DNA of 64,000 bases from Escherichia coli (lineage in GTDB: Bacteria; Pseudomonadota; Gammaproteobacteria; Enterobacterales; Enterobacteriaceae), in NCBI RefSeq assembly GCF_024298765.1, contig NZ_CP101210.1; one strand, 5' to 3'. The position numbers and the translations under genes are program-made. Position 1 is the first letter of the stretch. The number at the start of each line of letters is the position of its first letter. The notes under the pieces are model-generated. The model saw nothing but the letters and a program-made list of their open reading frames with translations, did no database searches and had not been told where the DNA came from. Below are positions 40,418 to 51,978 of the stretch, piece by piece.

Positions 40418-40459
40418 TAGACCAGCACCGATGCCTGATAAGACGCTCACTGCGTTTTA

Positions 40460-41878: not shown

Positions 41879-42384
41879 AAAACTCCTGAATGGCGCAAGT
41901 TAATCACACACGGCCAAAGTTCGAAATAACGCTGCACTGAAAGCCAGGCGTCAGGATAAAGCGCCATATAGTGTTTGATACGCATCAGCGGCGCAAGAAG
42001 TGGTTGCTCGCCACGGCGATAACTGTCGATAAGCGCCGCCAGCTGCTGGCGTTCTGTGGAATCAATATGTGGGCGAAAATATCCCTGAACGTGCATCAAA
42101 ACGTTAGTATGATCACGCCGGTTGGCAGGGTGAGAAAGCAAAACAATCACGCGTTGGCGGTACTGGTTGTAATAGTCATCCAGACTTTGCCACCGGTGAA
42201 TATCAGCCACAAACGGGCCAAGTTTGCGGTATTCCGGCTGGGAATGCGCCAGAAAGACGAGTTTATAACGGCTGTGATAATCGAGAAGCGCCCCGCGCGT
42301 TAAGCCATGTTCTTTCAGTCGATATAGCTCATAAATCGCGAAGATGCGGATTAGGGTGCTTTCATCAAATCGTTGCTGATTCAT
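41875..42384 (-). CDS. ybgA: DUF1722-family protein YbgA
   Basis: 169-aa ORF upstream of and overlapping phr. Confidence 0.9.
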   Translation of the reverse strand: MNQQRFDESTLIRIFAIYELYRLKEHGLTRGALLDYHSRYKLVFLAHSQPEYRKLGPFVADIHRWQSLDDYYNQYRQRVIVLLSHPANRRDHTNVLMHVQGYFRPHIDSTERQQLAALIDSYRRGEQPLLAPLMRIKHYMALYPDAWLSVQRYFELWPCVINLRHSGVL

Positions 42385-42459
42385 TACTGCTCCTGAACGG
42401 TTTACAGGAGTAAGTGTAGACGTTGGGAAATGAAATTTGTGAAGTTAATCCTGTTGTAG

Positions 42460-43294
42460 CAGGGCAAGATTACGAAAGCCCGCTCCCCGTAAGGACTGAC
42501 GCCAGGTAGTTTCTGTCCATAGCTGCCCTTTCTATTCAAACGTGAAATCAATAAGTTCATCAGGGACATCACAAACAATATGAAGACGGGTTTCTTCTCT
42601 GCCGTGACTCTTTTCACTAATTGAGTAACTGTCGTGCTCTGGATTATTTAATTCTTTCAGCGGAAATTTTTCCTCAAAGGCTTTATTAAGCCGCCACCTG
42701 ATTTCCTTTTACAGCGAATAAATAATCACCTCCCTGTTTTTGTATCTTCTCTGCAATATCTTTCTGGCAACTCATCGCATCAGTTGTGATGATTTTTCCT
42801 TTAATATCCAGCATGTTAAGAAGTTCAGGGATAGCTGTAATTTCATTGGATTTCTCATCCGTCCTGATCTGTCCGATGACCAGACTGTGCATTGTTGAGA
42901 ACGCACTAATGACATGAATCGCTCCCCTGCGGCGACTCTTGTCATAAGAATGCCGGAGCGTTTTTCCATCAATTGCAATAACGTCTTTATCATCTGAAGA
43001 ATGGCAGTCACGCATCCAGTTAATAAAGCACTCGTGAAATTTTGAAGGACTGATACAGGATACAACTCTGGCGATGGTATCGTGAACAGGAATACCATTT
43101 TAAAAATCACCATATTGTTTTAAAAAATCGAGATGTGTTTCCCCAAAATCCTCTATATCTTCCCAACCATCTGCACCAGAAATAACGGCACAAATAGTCA
43201 ACAGTAGAATATCCGACAATTTATGTTCCACTTTTCCAGGATTGTCTGTAATCGGGAATAACAGAAATATGTTCCATCAATTTTTTAAGTACCA
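42460..43294 (-). pseudogene. H-repeat (ISAs1-family) transposase pseudogene, copy 1: internal deletion plus nonsense/frameshift
   Basis: Aligns to the intact copy at 45108-46244 but lacks about 330 bp near the 3' end, has the 1-bp insertion shared with copy 3, and a stop (ttttaaaa in place of ttttcaaa) near 43100. Confidence 0.85.
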
Positions 43295-43424
43295 TTTTGT
43301 TCTCCTTAATTATGTAAGGAGTATTTGATCATGTATAAGCAATAAAAAACAGCTTTAGGTAATGAGGAATATCTCAATTTTTAAACATAAAATGCGAATT
43401 GTCTAGTACAAAAAAGCAGCGTTA

Positions 43425-43531
43425 CGTGATCTTTCCCTGAGAGGTACAGGAACTGCGGGAGGAACTTTATCAGGTTAAACAGGGGTTAAGGGGATGCGGA
43501 ACGGGATGTTTAGTGTGCTGAACGAAAGCTA
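43425..43531 (+). pseudogene. SymE-like toxin gene remnant (internal deletion)
   Basis: Retains the leader and GTG start context and the 3' end of the intact copy at 46375-46725; central part deleted, early stop. Confidence 0.7.
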
Positions 43532-43587
43532 AATAATAAAAAAGCCGGGAAGATCTTATCTTTCCCGGCCATCTTGCCATACATTAA

Positions 43588-44022
43588 TTATTTATGAATA
43601 TAATATAACTGAACATCATATTCATTATCACTTAAAACTATTAGTCGATCGGGAAATGTAAATGCTAATGAAAGATCATATGTTTCATTTATCGAAAACA
43701 AACTCAATATGAAATTTGAAAAATTTTCGACATGAAGAGATATGCAAACATCTCCATTATAGAATATATTGCAAAGAATATCTTTTTTCACATTCAGTGT
43801 ACTTTCAACATCTCTCGCTAGATCATTAATATTTAAAGGTAAATTGAAAACTCTCCTTTCAATAATATTATCGGTTTTATTTATTGCCATTAGCATTTCT
43901 CGATGCCACATGAAGTCATTCTTACGTAAGAATGATACATCAAAGGAAGTGACACCATTTAATTTAGAAGCATAATCTTTTGCTCTAATTAAATTTAATT
44001 TATCTTCAAGGCTAATTTTCAT
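43588..44022 (-). CDS. Putative Rhs-toxin immunity protein (orphan cassette 1)
   Basis: 144-aa low-GC ORF starting 4 nt before the stop of the orphan toxin reading frame; typical rhs-CT/rhsI arrangement. Confidence 0.6.
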   Translation of the reverse strand: MKISLEDKLNLIRAKDYASKLNGVTSFDVSFLRKNDFMWHREMLMAINKTDNIIERRVFNLPLNINDLARDVESTLNVKKDILCNIFYNGDVCISLHVENFSNFILSLFSINETYDLSLAFTFPDRLIVLSDNEYDVQLYYIHK

Positions 44023-44470
44023 AATATATATGATGATCCTTAGTTACAGGGTCATTGATCTTCTGATATCTATCACTTTTGAAATCGTATGTTCTAGGAT
44101 CAGCGCCCGGTTTAGGTTGTCCTGCATGTGCGTGAGGGCCAGGTGCCCTAGGATCTGCCGTGTGCTCGACTACAACTTTCTTACGTCCGTAGGCATCTGT
44201 ATATTCATAATATCGCCCATGAGACCCTAAATCTTCCGAATATTTATAATTTGTTTGTCCCCTTCTTCTAGGATCATTTCCAACGGTCCATTGCCTATTA
44301 GGTTGCTGTGAACGAGGTATGCCCGCAAGATCTTTTGCTTTATTTAGTGCCTGACGACGGTTTCTTAATTCACCACATTTAAGACCAAGCGGATCTATCC
44401 AGCTTACTGGATTAGGCGCGTAAGCATATAAGTTTAGCCCCCCCGCCAGCCCTATCGGGTCGGGTTACGT
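44011..44470 (-). pseudogene. Orphan rhs C-terminal toxin remnant (no start codon; in-frame stop before the DPxGL motif)
   Basis: Reverse-strand frame reads ...[46 protein letters not shown] followed by a 125-aa unique domain ending at the immunity gene; not in the ORF track because it lacks a start. Confidence 0.7.
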
Positions 44471-44634
44471 AAATGTTCCACAGTCCGAGTCGTAGTACCT
44501 CAGAAGGTTGCAGTGCAATCCCGCCTTGCGACATCAAGGCATAGTTTCAGAAAAAGTAAGGAGCAATCACCATACCCCAATTCACTGGGTGCTAAATAAT
44601 ATCTGGTAACATCCCTTACTTCAATTCTATTTCA

Positions 44635-45030
44635 TTACAACTTCTTTACTTTCCATATTCTTTGCGCAGCTAAAAAAGATACTCCTTTGAACCAAGACGC
44701 ACATTCAATAACTTGTTCCCATGAATATATTTTATGTGAGCTAAATTTTATCGATTCATCTTGGTTCATTATCTCAATAAAATAATATCCTTTATTATAA
44801 TCTCTTTTTTCTATTCTATCTTCAGCTCTTGCCGAACGTATAGAAATAACACAATCATCTAATAAACAAAATCTTTTCTTTATAATCGCATCATCTTGGT
44901 TCCATGGATTTGTACTTGCCATTTGTTCTGATTGTTTCAGCTCATTCACTACTGTATACCAAATAGCTTCGGTATCACTTGCCTTTGCATTCTCTCTATC
45001 AGACTCGGATCTAAATATAATTTTGTCCAT
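44635..45030 (-). CDS. Hypothetical protein, possibly an orphan immunity gene
   Basis: 131-aa low-GC ORF between H-repeat copy 2 and the orphan toxin remnant; no recognisable motif. Confidence 0.4.
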   Translation of the reverse strand: MDKIIFRSESDRENAKASDTEAIWYTVVNELKQSEQMASTNPWNQDDAIIKKRFCLLDDCVISIRSARAEDRIEKRDYNKGYYFIEIMNQDESIKFSSHKIYSWEQVIECASWFKGVSFLAAQRIWKVKKL

Positions 45031-45107
45031 TTTAATAATCCAAATGTAAATTACTTAAAATACCCTCTGCCTCATTCCAGGCATTGACATGGGAACCCAG
45101 GGAAAGA

Positions 45108-46244
45108 TTACGAAAGCCCGCTCCCAGCAAGGACTGACGCCAGATAGTTTCTGTCCATGGCTGCTTTTCGCATCTTACGTCTTAACCCTGCCTTGAATAC
45201 CTTATCATTCGTCAAAATATTAATAGCGATGTGCCGTATCCCTGAAAATAATTCTGCTGCATTTCCTCTTCTTATTTTGCAGTCGTCTTCATTCATTACC
45301 ACGTCCAGACGCCAGTGCAGCTTATTCTCCACGTGCCAGTGGTTTCGGATTGCTGTGGCGAACTTCTCTGCGGTTAAATCAGCAGAACTGATATAATATC
45401 TGACCGTCATTTCTGGCTCTTTCTTTTGTTCTGCTATTATTGACCGAAAGGAGACTGCCACGCATAATTTCTTCAGACCTTTCCATTCAAACGTGAAATC
45501 AATAAGTTCATCAGGGACATCGCAAACAATATGAAGACGGATTTCTTCTCTGCCGTGACTTTTTTCACTAATTGCGTAACTGTCATGCTCTGGATTATTT
45601 AATTCTTTCAGTGGGAATTTTTCCTCAAAGGCTTTATTAAGCCGCCCCTGATTTCCTTTTACAGCGAATAAATAATCACCGCCCTGTTTTTGTATCTTCT
45701 CTGCGATATCTTTCTGGCACCCCATCGCATCAGTTGTGATAATTTTTCCTTTAATATCCAACATGTTAAGAAGTTCAGGGATAGCTGTGATCTCATTGGA
45801 TTTCTCATCCGTCCTGATCTGTCCGATGACCAGACTGTGCATTGTTGAGAACGCACTAATGACATGAATCGCTCCCCTGCGGCGACTCTTGTCATAAGAA
45901 TGCCGGAGCGTTTTTCCATCAATTGCAATAACGTCTTTATCATCTGAAGAATGGCAGTCACGCATCCAGTTAATAAAGCACTCGTGAAATTTTGCAGGAC
46001 TGATACAGGATACAACTCTGGCAATGGTATCGTGAACAGGAATACCATTTTCAAAATCACCATATTGCTTCAAAAAATCGAGATGTGTTTCCCCAAAATC
46101 CTCTATATCTTCCCAGCCTTCTGCACAAGAAATAACGGCACAAATAGTCAACAGTAGAATATCCGACAATTTATGTTCCACTTTCCAGGCTTGTCTGTAA
46201 TCGGGGATAATAGAAATATGTTCCATCAATTTTTTAAGTTCCAT
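45108..46244 (-). CDS. H-repeat-associated protein (ISAs1-family transposase), intact copy 2
   Basis: 378-aa ORF of the YhhI/YdcC/YbfD H-rpt type; element left end about 45094 (aagattacgaaagcccgc). Confidence 0.9.
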
Positions 46245-46374
46245 TTTGTTCTCCTTAATTATGTAAGGAGTATTTGACCATGTATACGCAATAAAAAACA
46301 GCTTCAGGTAATGAGGAATATCTCAATTTTTAAACATAAAATGCGAATTATTTAGTACAAAAAAGCAGCGTTAC

Positions 46375-46725
46375 GTGATCTTTCCCTGGTTAATCATGGC
46401 TGAACACGATATTACGCCAGAAATCACCATTTCCAAAACACAGCGCCGCTATAAAGTCGGCTATGTCAGAGCCCGCCACATAAACAGCAAAACCTACATG
46501 ACCACGTACTACTCACGACACCCCAGCCTGAACCTCAAGGGCGACTGGCTGAAAGAGGCCGGATTTGATACCGGGCGGGGTGTCACGGTGAAGATTTCGG
46601 AGGGGTGCCTGACCATCATCGCTGACAGTGACGAGGTGCAGGAACTGCGGGAGGAACTTTATCAGGTTAAACAGGTGGTTAAGGGGATGCGGAGCGGGAT
46701 GTTTAGTGTGCTGAACGATAATTAA
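46375..46725 (+). CDS. SymE-like toxin (AbrB/SpoVT-fold type I toxin family), intact copy
   Basis: 116-aa ORF from GTG (or 109 aa from ATG at 46396); contains the SymE-family core LKGDWLKEAGFDTGRGVTVKISEGCLTI. Confidence 0.75.
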   Translation: MIFPWLIMAEHDITPEITISKTQRRYKVGYVRARHINSKTYMTTYYSRHPSLNLKGDWLKEAGFDTGRGVTVKISEGCLTIIADSDEVQELREELYQVKQVVKGMRSGMFSVLNDN

Positions 46726-46734
46726 ATAATAAAA

Positions 46735-46765
46735 AGCCGGGAAGATTTAATTTTCTTTCCGGCTT
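46735..46765 (-). terminator. Hairpin terminator between the SymE-like gene and the immunity gene
   Basis: gccgggaaga...tctttccggc hairpin flanked by an A-run on the plus strand (U-run for the minus-strand transcript); same motif at 43540-43572 and 51983-52018. Confidence 0.55.
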
Positions 46766-46776
46766 TGTCTAATTAA

Positions 46777-47172
46777 TTATTCAGGAAATTTTCTATTTTT
46801 ATATGATGACCATAAGTGAGTGATCGACCAAGAGTTTTCCTTTCCGAGTACAAAACTTTTGGAGATTATCTCAATATCATCAGATATACGCGAAGATATT
46901 TCAGAATTATTAATCACCCTGAATGAGTATTTAAATGCCTTTTCTCGCAAGGAATCAATAAACTCAATATCATCATCCTGAAAACTTTCCTTATCTAATG
47001 AATTAAACTCACTCATCCAGCAATCATCAAACTCCGGTTCATCTCTTGAGTCTAATGCACTATCAACATTTAATGATTTAAGAAAATCAAAAAATGACGG
47101 GGTGGATAAACAGTTATCAATTTCAATTAGCTTATTATTAATCATCACATTAACCCTTGTCCTTTGAGCCAA
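46777..47172 (-). CDS. Putative Rhs-toxin immunity protein (orphan cassette 2)
   Basis: 131-aa acidic low-GC ORF immediately 3' of and overlapping the GHH-type orphan toxin. Confidence 0.6.
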   Translation of the reverse strand: MAQRTRVNVMINNKLIEIDNCLSTPSFFDFLKSLNVDSALDSRDEPEFDDCWMSEFNSLDKESFQDDDIEFIDSLREKAFKYSFRVINNSEISSRISDDIEIISKSFVLGKENSWSITHLWSSYKNRKFPE

Positions 47173-47790
47173 ACCTCTATTAAATCAACAGCCTTGGATG
47201 GTGTCACATTAGTACCTAGCGTATAAGTTCCATTTGGAGATTTAACATCAACTCTGATGTCATCTAATTTTGAATACGCTTTTCTGTAAGCATCAAATAA
47301 CTCTTTATCCGAACCAAGGAAATCACCTTGTCTTGGACCTATCACATCTCGTTCCGCATGATGTAAACGCCAGTGATTATGTTCTGGATTTTCTCCTCTA
47401 GGGAATAATGTTGGGCGAGTTTTATCAGATCGGGAAACTTCAAACGGACGTCCTTTAGATTTACGAACCGCAGGAACATGATGTCCAGATTCACTCACGC
47501 CCATACACTTCTTCGTTAATCCAAGGGGATCGATCCAGCTTAACGGATTCGGTGCATAAGCATACAGGTTTAACCCGCCTCTTAGCCCTATCGGGTCCGT
47601 TACCATGAACCGCCCGACATCCGGATCATAGTACCTGTGCAGATTGTAATGCAGCCCCGTTTCCCTGTCGAGGTACTGTCCCTGGTAGCGCAGGTTCTGC
47701 TCCACCCCGCCGTGGTCCTTCTCCTGTATCGTGTTACCCCAGACCTGATACCCCGTCTCCCACACGATTTTCCCGTCACTGTCCGTCATC
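47145..47790 (-). CDS. Orphan rhs C-terminal fragment with GHH-signature HNH/EndoVII-like nuclease toxin domain
   Basis: Core end ([38 protein letters not shown]) followed by a unique domain containing SGHHVPAV and EHNHWRLHH; 5' end truncated by the H-repeat copy 3 insertion; the track Met is fortuitous. Confidence 0.65.
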
Positions 47791-47802
47791 TCCAGGGCAA
47801 GA

Positions 47803-48940
47803 TTACGAAAGCCCGCACCCCGCAAGGACTGACGCCAGATAGTTTCTGTCCATGGCTGCTTTTCGCATCTTACGTCTTAACCCTGCCTTGAATACCTTAT
47901 CATTCGTCAAAATATTAATAGCGATGTGCCGTATCCCTGAAAATAATTCTGCTGCATTTCCTCTTCTTATTTTGCAGTCGTCTTCATTCATTACCACGTC
48001 CAGACGCCAGTGCAGCTTATTCTCCACGTGCCAGTGATTTCGGATCGCTGTGGCGAACTTTTCTGCGGTTAAATCAGCAGAACTGATATAATATCTGACC
48101 GTCATTTCTGGCTCTTTCTTTTGTTCTGCTATTATGGACCGAAAGGAGACTGCCACGCATAATTTCTTCAGTCCTTTCCATTCAAACGTGAAATCAATAA
48201 GTTCATCAGGGACATCACAAACAATATGAAGACGGGTTTCTTCTCTGCCGTGACTCTTTTCACTAATTGAGTAACTGTCGTGCTCTGGATTATTTAATTC
48301 TTTCAGCGGAAATTTTTCCTCAAAGGCTTTATTAAGCCGCCACCTGATTTCCTTTTACAGCGAATAAATAATCACCTCCCTGTTTTTGTATCTTCTCTGC
48401 AATATCTTTCTGGCAACTCATCGCATCAGTTGTGATGATTTTTCCTTTAATATCCAGCATGTTAAGAAGTTCAGGGATAGCTGTAATTTCATTGGATTTC
48501 TCATCCGTCCTGATCTGTCCGATGACCAGACTGTGCATTGTTGAGAACGCACTAATGACATGAATCGCTCCCCTGCGGCGACTCTTGTCATAAGAATGCC
48601 GGAGCGTTTTTCCATCAATTGCAATAACGTCTTTATCATCTGAAGAATGGCAGTCACGCATCCAGTTAATAAAGCACTCGTGAAATTTTGCAGGACTGAT
48701 ACAGGATACAACTCTGGCAATGGTATCGTGAACAGGAATACCATTTTCAAAATCACCATATTGCTTCAAAAAATCGAGATGTGTTTCCCCAAAATCCTCT
48801 ATATCTTCCCAGCCTTCTGCACCAGAAATAACGGCACAAATAGTCAACAGTAGAATATCCGACAATTTATGTTCCACTTTCCAGGCTTGTCTGTAATCGG
48901 GGACAATAGAAATATGTTCCATCAATTTTTTAAGTTCCAT
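47803..48940 (-). pseudogene. H-repeat (ISAs1-family) transposase pseudogene, copy 3 (frameshifted)
   Basis: Split into two ORFs (47803-48156 and 48332-48940) by a 1-bp insertion (aagccgccacctg versus aagccgcccctg in the intact copy). Confidence 0.85.
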
Positions 48941-49080
48941 TTTGTTCTCCTTAATTATGTAAGGAGTATTTGATCATGTATAAGCAATAAAAAACAGCTT
49001 TAGGTAATGAGGAATATCTCAAATCTTAAACATAAAATGCCAATTATTTAGTACAAAAAAGTAGCGTTACGTGATCTTTC

Positions 49081-49570
49081 CCTAAAACGCAGACCCAGTT
49101 GTGCATAGTACACATGGTACGCAACAGCCTGCGGTTCGTGACGTGGAAAGACTATAAAGCGGTAACCCGTGACCTGAAACAGGTTTACCGCGCGGCCACG
49201 GAAGAAGGCGTGTTGCAGGCGCTGGATGCGTTCGGGAAGGAATGGGATGCACGGTACCCGCAGATAAGTCGCAGCTGGCGGGCAAACTGACCGAATGTTG
49301 CCACCTTCTTCGTGTACCCGGAGGCGATCCGAAAGGTTATCTACACCACTAACGCAATCGAATCGCTGAATAGCGTCATCAGACATGCGATAAAGAAAAG
49401 GAAAGTGTTCCCGACAGATGAATCGGTGAAAAAAGTGGTGTGGCTGGCTATCCAGTCAGCCTCACAGAAATGGACGATGCCACTTCAGGACTAGCGGATA
49501 GCCATGAGTCGCTTTATTATCGAGTTCGGTGACCGCCTTGACGGTCACTTCTGAGAAAGGCATTTACACA
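49081..49570 (+). mobile_element. IS256-family (mutator-type) transposase gene remnant, 5'-truncated and frameshifted
   Basis: ORFs 49099-49290 and 49312-49494 encode the C-terminal part of an IS256-type transposase (...YPQISRSWRAN / IRKVIYTTNAIESLNSVIRHAIKKRKVFPTDESV...); begins abruptly at the shared leader sequence. Confidence 0.75.
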
Positions 49571-49619
49571 GAATGATGGACAGGCTCAACGGGAAGGCTA
49601 CATGCCTTCCCATTTTATA

Positions 49620-49947: not shown

Positions 49948-51753
49948 TTATTTACGCCGAGTTATTTTTGCATTATCAGAAAGAACAATATCACCTTTCA
50001 CAGTCAATTCATCTATATGGTATCGAGGGTTTGTTACCCACTCTAATTGCTCGTTAGGTACATCTGTTTCCACATAATCTCTACCTTTCCCACGACCTAT
50101 TTGATATTTCGCCTCTATGTCTACTTGACTGAGTGGTTTTTTATTCGCAGGTTCCAAATATACACGACCGTTATCATGCGCCTTAATTATCCCACTTTCA
50201 GCAATCGCATTTGAACCTTTACGATTAGTATAATGCCGCACACGAGTAGTTCCATTACAGAGCTCTTTTTTTAATCCGAGTGGATCAATATATTTCAGCG
50301 GATTAGGCGCATAAGCATATAAGTTCAACCCACCCGCCAGCCCTATCGGATCCGTTACAATGAACCGCCCGACATCCGGATCATAGTACCTGTGCAGATT
50401 GTAATGCAGCCCTGTTTCCCTGTCGAGGTACTGTCCCTGGTAGCGCAGGTTCTGCTCCACCCTGCCGTGGTCCTTCTCCTGTATCGTGTTACCCCAGACC
50501 TGATACCCCGTCTCCCACACGATTTTCCCGTCACTGTCCGTCATCTCTTCCGGCGCGCCGTTCACATCCGTGTGAAAATACAGTATCCGGTTCGGGCCCT
50601 CTTTGCCCGCCTTATCCACCCGCGCCAGCGGTTCATAACTCCCCGGGTCCCTGTAGATGTACAGGCTGTCTGTTCCCTCCGGCCTGCTCTCCTGCGCCAG
50701 CCGCATTCCGTCCCATAAAAATGCCGTCCGGTTGTACGGTTTACCGTCAGGGCTGATGTGCTGTTTTTCCGTCCGCCTCCCCAGCGCATCGTACACATAC
50801 CGGTACGTTCCCCGCGCTGTCGTCACTTCCACCATCCGGTGTTCCGCATCATAACGGTAACTCTGCGTGCCGCTCCGCCCCTCCTTTTCCACCGCACGGC
50901 CAAATTCGTCGTAACGGTAGTGCACACCACGGTAAGACATCAGCCGGTTGAACGGCACCACGCTGTTTTCTGCCGTGGCCCTTTCCCCCGCGCGCCGCCC
51001 CAGCAGGTTTCCCGCCGCGTCGTACTGCCAGCTCGCCAGATACCCCTCATCCTCCGAGCGGCACGCCGTGATGCGCCCCGTGGGGTCGTAGAAGTAATCC
51101 GTTTCCCCCCGCCGGCTGTGCCGCGTCTTCAGCAGTTCATCCTCGCCACTGTAGCTGTACTGCCGGTCCGTGAACGTCTCCGGTACCACCCCGCGCATCC
51201 CGCTGTATGTCTCCCTGCGCTTCAGCCGCCCGGCGGGGTCGTAAAGCTGCCGCGTGCTCAGTCGCCCCTGACTTCTGAGCACTTCACGGTGCAGGGCGTC
51301 ACGAGTGAACTCGCTGATGACCTCCCGGTCCAGATTTATCTGCTGGAGATGGCCGCTGCCGTAGTACAGATGACGCTGCGTTCTGCCGTCCGGAAAGGTG
51401 GTGGCTGTCCGGTTGCTGAGTTCATCGTACTGATGGGTCAGGACGCCCTGCGCCGTCTCCTCAGTCAGCATCCGCCCCAGTCTGTCGTAACTGAAACGGA
51501 TAATCTCCGGTGCGTCTGTTTCCCCGGCATCCGACCGTCGGCGGCGGATTTCCAGTAACTGGTCTGCCGCATCATGGACGTATTCCGTACGGCTATCGGC
51601 TGTCTCCTTTGCCGTGAGCCGGCCCGCCGCATCACGTGCCAGCCGGTGGCGGATTTCACCGCCCCGGTCCCCGGTGAACACCACTTCCGTGACCGCGTTC
51701 AGCGCGTTGTAGCGGTACGTCTGGCGGCAGCCGTCGTGCTGCCAGCGCAGCAT
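49948..51753 (-). CDS. Orphan rhs fragment: about 480 aa of Rhs core plus a distinct C-terminal toxin domain
   Basis: YD-repeat core near-identical to the main rhs, then DPIGLAGG...DPLGL and a unique roughly 108-aa tail (KKELCNGTTRVRHYTNRKGSNAIAESGII...); rhs homology starts at DGCRQTYRY, so the track Met is fortuitous. Confidence 0.8.
   Translation of the reverse strand: MLRWQHDGCRQTYRYNALNAVTEVVFTGDRGGEIRHRLARDAAGRLTAKETADSRTEYVHDAADQLLEIRRRRSDAGETDAPEIIRFSYDRLGRMLTEETAQGVLTHQYDELSNRTATTFPDGRTQRHLYYGSGHLQQINLDREVISEFTRDALHREVLRSQGRLSTRQLYDPAGRLKRRETYSGMRGVVPETFTDRQYSYSGEDELLKTRHSRRGETDYFYDPTGRITACRSEDEGYLASWQYDAAGNLLGRRAGERATAENSVVPFNRLMSYRGVHYRYDEFGRAVEKEGRSGTQSYRYDAEHRMVEVTTARGTYRYVYDALGRRTEKQHISPDGKPYNRTAFLWDGMRLAQESRPEGTDSLYIYRDPGSYEPLARVDKAGKEGPNRILYFHTDVNGAPEEMTDSDGKIVWETGYQVWGNTIQEKDHGRVEQNLRYQGQYLDRETGLHYNLHRYYDPDVGRFIVTDPIGLAGGLNLYAYAPNPLKYIDPLGLKKELCNGTTRVRHYTNRKGSNAIAESGIIKAHDNGRVYLEPANKKPLSQVDIEAKYQIGRGKGRDYVETDVPNEQLEWVTNPRYHIDELTVKGDIVLSDNAKITRRK
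50362..51735. repeat. 1.37-kb direct repeat, copy A (orphan rhs core)
   Basis: Essentially identical to 52880-54253 (offset 2518 bp); the antisense track ORFs 50392-50718 and 50758-51558 recur identically at 52910-53236 and 53276-54076. Confidence 0.9.
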
Positions 51754-51774
51754 CTGCCCAACCGCAGCGACACG

Positions 51775-51978
51775 CCGGTGATCAAAATCAGCGCCAAATG
51801 GCTGAGAGAAGCGGGATTTGAGATCGGCACGGGCGTTACCGTGAAGATCTCGGAAGGCTGCCTGATCCTGCTTGCAGATAACAACGGAGTACAGGAACTG
51901 CGCAGGGAACTTTATCAGGTTAAACAGTCTGTTAAGGGGATGCGGAACGGGATGTTTAGTATGCTGAACGATAATTAA
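51775..51978 (+). pseudogene. SymE-like toxin gene 3' fragment
   Basis: Encodes ...IKISAKWLREAGFEIGTGVTVKISEGCLILLADNNGVQELRRELYQVKQSVKGMRNGMFSMLNDN; 5' part replaced by the orphan rhs junction. Confidence 0.7.

Follow-up and report, generated by a model that had tools for sequence, protein, structure and literature searches.

Three ISEc1 (H-repeat) copies in the rhsC-side orphan array of an Escherichia coli lineage: a shared frameshift probably spread by gene conversion

The window analysed here, a 64,000-nucleotide stretch of the Escherichia coli chromosome (contig NZ_CP101210.1), carries three H-repeats (H-rpts), insertion sequences (ISs) of the ISAs1 family, within an rhs locus. In Rhs arrays, a main rhs gene is followed by orphans composed of a partial core and a toxin/immunity pair (Jackson et al. 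2009, PMC2935791; Poole et al. 2011, PMC3150448). The locus in the window lies on the minus strand next to ybgI, dtpD, phr and ybgA, which occupy about 37.9-42.4 kb, and is the rhsC-side orphan toxin/immunity array with three interspersed copies of one such element, ISEc1. Two of these copies share an inactivating extra base, and a preliminary description of the region had concluded that they descend by duplication from an already defective element; as we describe in the following, the base was probably pasted by gene conversion into a copy that was dead before.

All comparisons between genomes refer to a set of 5,426 complete RefSeq E. coli genomes. Of these, 55, many of them avian isolates, contain the stretch 42300-49600 (7.3 kb) at 100% identity, and the lineage carrying the rhsC-side orphan array amounts to about 60-70 genomes. 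Strain 181.1 (L001) of this lineage has an IS21-family element (istA/istB, ISSso4-like; L001 18558-20865) between orphan A and the SymE-family gene; as this element is absent in the window, the window stems from another member of the lineage. From the main rhs gene towards ybgA, the array contains the following features, where ORF stands for open reading frame:

57100-52442, minus strand: main rhs gene.
52424-52044, minus strand: immunity-like ORF after the main rhs gene.
51736-51978, plus strand: SymE-family gene.
51753-49948, minus strand: orphan A, with a Tox-ART-HYD1 tip (Pfam, 2e-14).
49946-49620, minus strand: ORF after orphan A.
49099-49494, plus strand: the C-terminal third, with an internal stop, of an IS256/Mutator-family transposase gene (match to positions 253-377 of the 379 in profile PF00872).
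47793-49084, minus strand: H-rpt/ISEc1 copy 3, 1292 bp, full length, split by an extra T.
47145-47792, minus strand: orphan B, an rhs fragment with the last ~77 core codons and a C-terminal toxin domain, bounded on its 5' side by the right end of copy 3.
46777-47172, minus strand: immunity-like ORF of orphan B.
46396-46725, plus strand: SymE-family gene; its start and the left end of copy 2 are 8 bp apart.
45098-46388, minus strand: H-rpt/ISEc1 copy 2, 1291 bp, with an intact transposase ORF (45108-46244).
45030-44635, minus strand: ORF between copy 2 and the mini-orphan.
44455-44012, minus strand: mini-orphan, Tox-HNH-EHHH (Pfam, 9e-10).
44022-43588, minus strand: ORF of the mini-orphan.
43441-43542, plus strand: only the 3' part of a SymE-family gene, truncated at the left end of copy 1.
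42460-43439, minus strand: H-rpt/ISEc1 copy 1, the ybfD relic beside ybgA, 980 bp, with both terminal inverted repeats present.

Multiple alignment and BLAST bear out the three ISAs1-family elements of the preliminary description, with lengths of 1291, 1292 and 980 bp. They span 42460-49084; the end point given before, 48940, is only the ATG of the copy 3 ORF. To say that they mark the boundaries of the orphan cassettes is fair, as each closes an orphan module on its distal side; two of the three have a SymE-family neighbour, a complete gene in the case of copy 2 and a truncated one in that of copy 1. All three already carry RefSeq annotation: in an identical genome, the Prokaryotic Genome Annotation Pipeline (PGAP) labels copy 1 as ‘ybfD: ISAs1 family transposase, frameshifted; internal stop; incomplete’, copy 2 as ‘ISAs1-like element ISEc1 family transposase’ and copy 3 as ‘ISAs1 family transposase, frameshifted’.

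Copy 2 is the intact member of the trio. Its ORF (45108-46244, minus strand) encodes a transposase of 378 residues, as previously noted, which matches the NCBIfam model NF033564 (‘ISAs1 family transposase’) over its full length (profile 1-314/314, 412.5 bits, cut-off 70) and the Pfam families DDE_Tnp_1_assoc (3e-32) and DDE_Tnp_1 (2e-30). The protein is identical to K-12 YhhI in 374 of 378 residues (4 differences), and the DNA aligns with K-12 H-rptB colinearly and without gaps at 96.5% identity over 1291 bp. The ends, CAGGGAAAGATCACGTAACGCTGCT and CAGGGAAAGATTACGAAAGCCCGCT, form imperfect terminal inverted repeats that match at 20 of 25 positions, so that with 1291 bp, one ORF and short terminal inverted repeats, copy 2 has the format of the ISAs1 family (about 1.2-1.5 kb). 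By this near-identity in DNA and protein, copy 2 is ISEc1, the same IS as K-12 H-rptB. It could still make transposase; recent transposition is not indicated by the data from the locus, and transposition activity of H-rpts has reportedly never been observed (PMC3032704, Rhs section). In the search for target-site duplications proposed in the preliminary description, none of the nine pairings of a left with a right flank of the three copies contained a direct repeat of at least 3 bp; since the flanks were exchanged by recombination, this absence says little, and the K-12 type copy H-rptB lacks a target-site duplication as well.

Copy 3 is a full-length element with 97.4% identity to copy 2 (element 2-1291; element coordinates here and below are positions within the 1291-bp copy 2-type ISEc1). 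An extra T at 48342 splits its reading frame into an N-terminal ORF of 202 residues (48332-48940) and a C-terminal one of 117 residues (47803-48156), which match NF033564 at profile positions 1-172 and 241-314. Of the earlier statement that it sits inside an rhs core, the right side holds: there the element adjoins the core at ...EMTDSDGK, the exact site where the paralogous cores read ...GCGCCGGAA followed directly by GAGATGACGGAC. On the left, it adjoins the truncated IS256/Mutator-family transposase gene, which is cut exactly there, and not the upstream rhs core; a simple insertion into an rhs core is thereby ruled out. The ‘GHH’ label given to the orphan on the right side (orphan B, 47145-47825) had only a visible SGHH string behind it and was dropped, as the 122-aa C-terminal domain matches no Pfam family at E<=1, the Tox-GHH and HNH-EndoVII models included.

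Copy 1 has suffered far more. It aligns with copy 2 over element 1-911 and 1225-1291 (BLAST), and the missing element positions 912-1224 amount to a deletion of 313 bp, not the approximately 330 bp given before, with its junction between 42526 and 42527 (minus strand). The deleted region includes a conserved W-H-V-E-N motif, which we take to contain the third DDE residue expected for IS4-like transposases. Instead of the single nonsense codon reported earlier, there are two, TAA at 43100-43102 (E65*) and TAG at 42532-42534 (W254*), and in addition to the extra T, here at 42696, a second frameshift had been overlooked, an extra A (+A) at 43232. Copy 1 occupies the position of K-12 ybfD and is its orthologue: the two agree in the ybgA flank, in the 911/1225 deletion junction and in the TAG, and junction and flank are also identical in strains 266917_2 (L003), 98200 (L004) and 22-245 (L005). 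The sequence from ybgA through the whole deleted element aligns in about 3,300 of the 5,426 genomes, K-12 included, and the ybfD relic is therefore old and widespread.

Copies 1 and 3 do share the 1-bp insertion for which they had been singled out (+T in the following). The sequence AAGCCGCCACCTG is found exactly at 42688-42700 in copy 1 and at 48334-48346 in copy 3, with 0 occurrences expected by chance, while copy 2 has the uninserted form AAGCCGCCCCTG at 45639. The claim of one further common substitution was correct in that more than +T is shared, and too low in number, as the two copies have at least five exclusive common substitutions besides +T. These data support a single origin of the +T in both copies over two independent hits. 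The likeness is, however, unevenly distributed: copies 1 and 3 differ at 20 of the first 395 aligned positions (5%) and at none of the next 511. The identical block comprises 42534-43044 in copy 1 and 48180-48690 in copy 3 (minus strand), and differences resume at the TAG and the deletion junction; given the density of differences, a permutation test assigns an identical run of 511 bp a p value of about 5e-6. Copy 1 is thus a mosaic, which is ybfD-like at element 273-394, equal to copy 3 at 395-904, and ybfD-like again from 905 to its end.

This structure bears directly on the duplication model, in which an already frameshifted element was duplicated, either by transposition in trans or by segmental duplication, and copy 1 acquired its deletion and nonsense codon later. 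That +T and several substitutions are exclusive to copies 1 and 3 is what such a duplication would leave behind. However, the likeness of the two copies is limited to the 511-bp block, no target-site duplications were found, and the deletion, TAG and TAA of copy 1 occur at the same site in ybfD orthologues that lack +T, so that they must be older than +T. Copy 1 was therefore dead first and gained +T secondarily, most likely by gene conversion. The comparison with other strains that the preliminary description had called for thus tells against its own model, which we now consider very improbable, and adds that the +T allele is restricted to one lineage.

The orthologues also provide markers for the extent and the likely source of the converted tract. 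In all four that were aligned (K-12, L003, L004 and L005), +T is absent and 738C/750A are present, whereas copy 1 has lost 738C/750A inside the tract. Upstream of it, copy 1 shares 273T, 318A, 321A, 337T (the TAA), 366C and 394T with L003, which has none of the tract markers 597A, 667A, 804C, 814T and 867T. The tract is thereby delimited to element 597-867 at the minimum (informative markers) and to 395-904 at the maximum, which gives it a length between 271 and 511 bp. As 738C/750A are missing from copy 1 and present in all four orthologues, the tract is foreign to copy 1, and we infer that it was transferred from copy 3 to copy 1. The identity of the tract in both copies is in itself without direction, and one could thus also imagine a transfer from copy 1 to copy 3, or the conversion of both by a third ISEc1 copy located elsewhere in the genome or acquired horizontally. 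The survey cuts both ways here: the tract haplotype (287 bp) is found in 73 genomes, at one or two places per genome, and in no other context, so that its original source remains unsampled, and by the same token no third carrier exists among the 5,426 genomes. Together with the foreign character of the tract in copy 1, this makes either variant unlikely. The genome search with the ybfD relic gave 142 records at >=99%; those beyond the 73 genomes with the tract haplotype do not add to the carriers and are assumed to be short partial matches.

Beyond the window, +T itself is confined to this lineage. An exact 61-mer spanning it occurs in 72 of the 5,426 genomes and is absent from the other 5,354, although about 3,800 matching places exist in 3,164 genomes. 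Within the 72, +T is present in two copies in 61 genomes, in one copy in 10 and in three copies in one. In the last of these, strain 2017.09.02CC (L008), copy 2 carries +T and otherwise equals copy 2 of the window, including 708C and 774C; copy-2 markers flank it at distances of 34 bp (upstream) and 32 bp (downstream), so that the patch is shorter than 66 bp, and it could represent a third, very short transfer. It is also the one observation in favour of a mutational hotspot at which the same +T would recur independently in each copy. For copies 1 and 3, there is next to no chance that this is the explanation: their +T lies within 511 bp of identical sequence, together with five more exclusive substitutions, the allele is restricted to one lineage among the places surveyed, and the insertion, from CAGGGGCGG to CAGGTGGCGG, is no homopolymer slip. 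Templating by a quasi-palindrome was considered for +T as well and rejected, as the nearby 5-bp GGCTT/AAGCC hairpin does not template a T and the allele is lineage-restricted.

Five of the ten genomes with a single +T copy were opened. Four of them (L006, L007, L011 and L012) have a single hybrid H-rpt with the left flank of copy 3, the IS256-family fragment, and the right flank of copy 1, ybgA. The intervening 5.3 kb are gone, and with them copy 2, which holds the only intact transposase, and two orphan toxin/immunity modules. Copy-3 markers give way to copy-1 markers within element 63-148 in L006 and L007, and within element 490-904, inside the identical tract, in L011 and L012. The breakpoints differ, and the 5.3-kb segment was therefore lost twice independently, by crossovers between copies 3 and 1.

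The hybrids could in principle be read in the opposite sense, as the ancestral state: a single hybrid element of the L011/L006 type would have been turned into the three-copy array by homologous integration of a circular segment with copy 2 and two orphan cassettes, and copies 1 and 3 would be the recombinant halves. Single-copy alleles with the left flank of copy 3 and the right flank of copy 1 do exist. Nevertheless, breakpoints at 63-148 and 490-904 are more easily explained by two deletions from one three-copy ancestor than by two ancestors; the incoming element would need the ybfD-lineage markers, including the TAA found in the resident ybfD of L003; and a single crossover would still not place +T in both products. 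We therefore regard such an integration as quite improbable.

The fifth genome, strain E04 (L013), has an IS5 element in copy 1 near element 34-36 (L013 6811-7791) in a different neighbourhood; beyond the mini-orphan, its array is replaced by xerC and primase genes of another mobile element. Furthermore, the copy 3 variants 455G/459C/489C are present in L008, L009, L011 and L012 and missing from the window, a distribution that points to further patch exchange. L009 is strain FCI1 (GCF_057655095.1, NZ_CM172811.1). Its locus is built like that of the window and contains the tract haplotype, yet +T is missing from copies 1 and 3 and +A from copy 1; PGAP annotates its copy 3 as intact. FCI1 and the window differ by four indels, each of them a base missing in FCI1, and one of them, an intergenic 1-bp deletion at window position 40430, is private to it and absent in four close relatives. 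A genuine pre-frameshift haplotype and a deletion-biased assembly error are thus both live alternatives, and for this reason we did not accept FCI1 as a clean ‘pre-frameshift’ ancestor. The same comparison revealed identical substitutions at four pairs of paralogous sites in the orphan-A core and the main rhs core (50724/53242, 50806/53324, 50809/53327 and 50869/53387), which suggests that gene conversion may take place between rhs cores as well.

Taken together, the following history appears probable to us from the sequence comparisons. Copy 1 would be an ancient ybfD relic, already inactivated by the 313-bp deletion and nonsense codons, and copy 3 a separate full-length element that gained the +T frameshift. 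By non-reciprocal homologous recombination, a copy-3-type patch including +T would then have been copied into copy 1. Recombination between repeats of about 1 kb with 96-97% identity, homologous and presumably RecA-dependent, would yield such patches as well as the reciprocal deletions described above. In this array, ISEc1 copies may accordingly act mainly as portable homology: they would swap patches, and crossovers between them would delete or reshuffle orphan cassettes, whether or not any transposase is made. Several points weigh against this history. The direction of the transfer rests on four orthologues and parsimony, and a third, unsampled donor may have converted both copies. Should the FCI1 sequence be genuine, sharing of the tract would precede the origin of +T, which would have required a second transfer; this would still be conversion, only in another order. 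Finally, the patch in copy 2 of L008 could be a recurrent mutation.

Two further ideas concern the products of the frameshifted copies. Truncated transposase products inhibit in trans in some other IS families, and the 202-aa product of the +T allele, which comprises DDE_Tnp_1_assoc and a partial DDE domain, might by analogy be a trans-dominant inhibitor of the copy 2 transposase. If true, the spread of +T to one, two or three copies by conversion would amount to the self-silencing of an IS family within one locus; we give this idea very little credence. Conversely, CAGGTGGCGGCT-TAA, a Shine-Dalgarno-like AGGTGG followed by a stop, could be conceived as a prfB-like +1 recoding site that restores the full-length transposase. 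This is unlikely, because re-pairing from GCU to CUU would be poor.

The surroundings of the H-rpts show regularities of their own. In the deletion strains, the IS256-family fragment at copy 3 is still present and adjoins the single hybrid H-rpt on the left. A SymE-family gene or remnant on the opposite strand follows three of the four rhs toxin/immunity modules and is seemingly part of the repeated orphan module. Inside the SymE-family toxin gene beside copy 2 (46396-46725, plus strand), the Hfq-binding small RNA isrA (Rfam RF01385) has a full-length antisense match at 46467-46595 (minus strand; 117.6 bits, gathering score 51), which resembles an antisense partner of the SymR type.

Beyond bookkeeping, these findings matter little, and their useful points are methodological and local. 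A common inactivating lesion in repeats is not proof of duplication, since a lesion can also reach an older, independently dead copy by conversion. Likewise, the deletions in natural isolates and the presence of +T in one to three copies indicate that H-rpts serve as recombination substrates in the remodelling of the rhs orphan array.

As an element, the ISEc1 described here does not differ in kind from other members of the ISAs1 family (NF033564; DDE_Tnp_1 and DDE_Tnp_1_assoc), which have a single ORF, a length of about 1.3 kb and short imperfect inverted repeats. The K-12 type copy, H-rptB/yhhI downstream of rhsB, shares the terminal sequence CAGGGAAAGAT... with copy 2, but resides at a different chromosomal site with different neighbours, whereas here three copies, two of them defective, are found in one rhs locus. 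Closer in position are the K-12 H-rpts ybfQ, ybfL and ybfD, all defective and in the same locus between rhsC and ybgA-phr, which were reportedly described as H-rptC1-C3 by Zhao et al. in 1993 (J Bacteriol 175:2799). In K-12, these are contiguous and fused, the first of the three being represented by its first 380 bp and the third lacking its first 20 bp, and none has +T. In the window, by contrast, orphan cassettes separate the copies, and copy 1 has an intact left end and a middle overwritten by copy-3 sequence. These elements, the family they belong to and their link with Rhs loci have been known since the 1990s; the rhsC locus and the part that repeats play in Rhs rearrangement are likewise known.

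Recombination at H-rpts has also been invoked between gene clusters: an H-repeat remnant lies at the recombination junction proposed for the origin of the Salmonella O-antigen group D2 cluster (PMC3715488). The 2009 paper on rhs evolution does not discuss the H-rpt. Unlike in the Rhs orphan and D2 cases, the exchange described here took place between H-rpt copies within one locus, in the form of patch conversion and, among natural isolates, of deletions with two breakpoints. Two features set this lineage apart, namely the arrangement of its array and the fact that one frameshift has probably spread through it by conversion.

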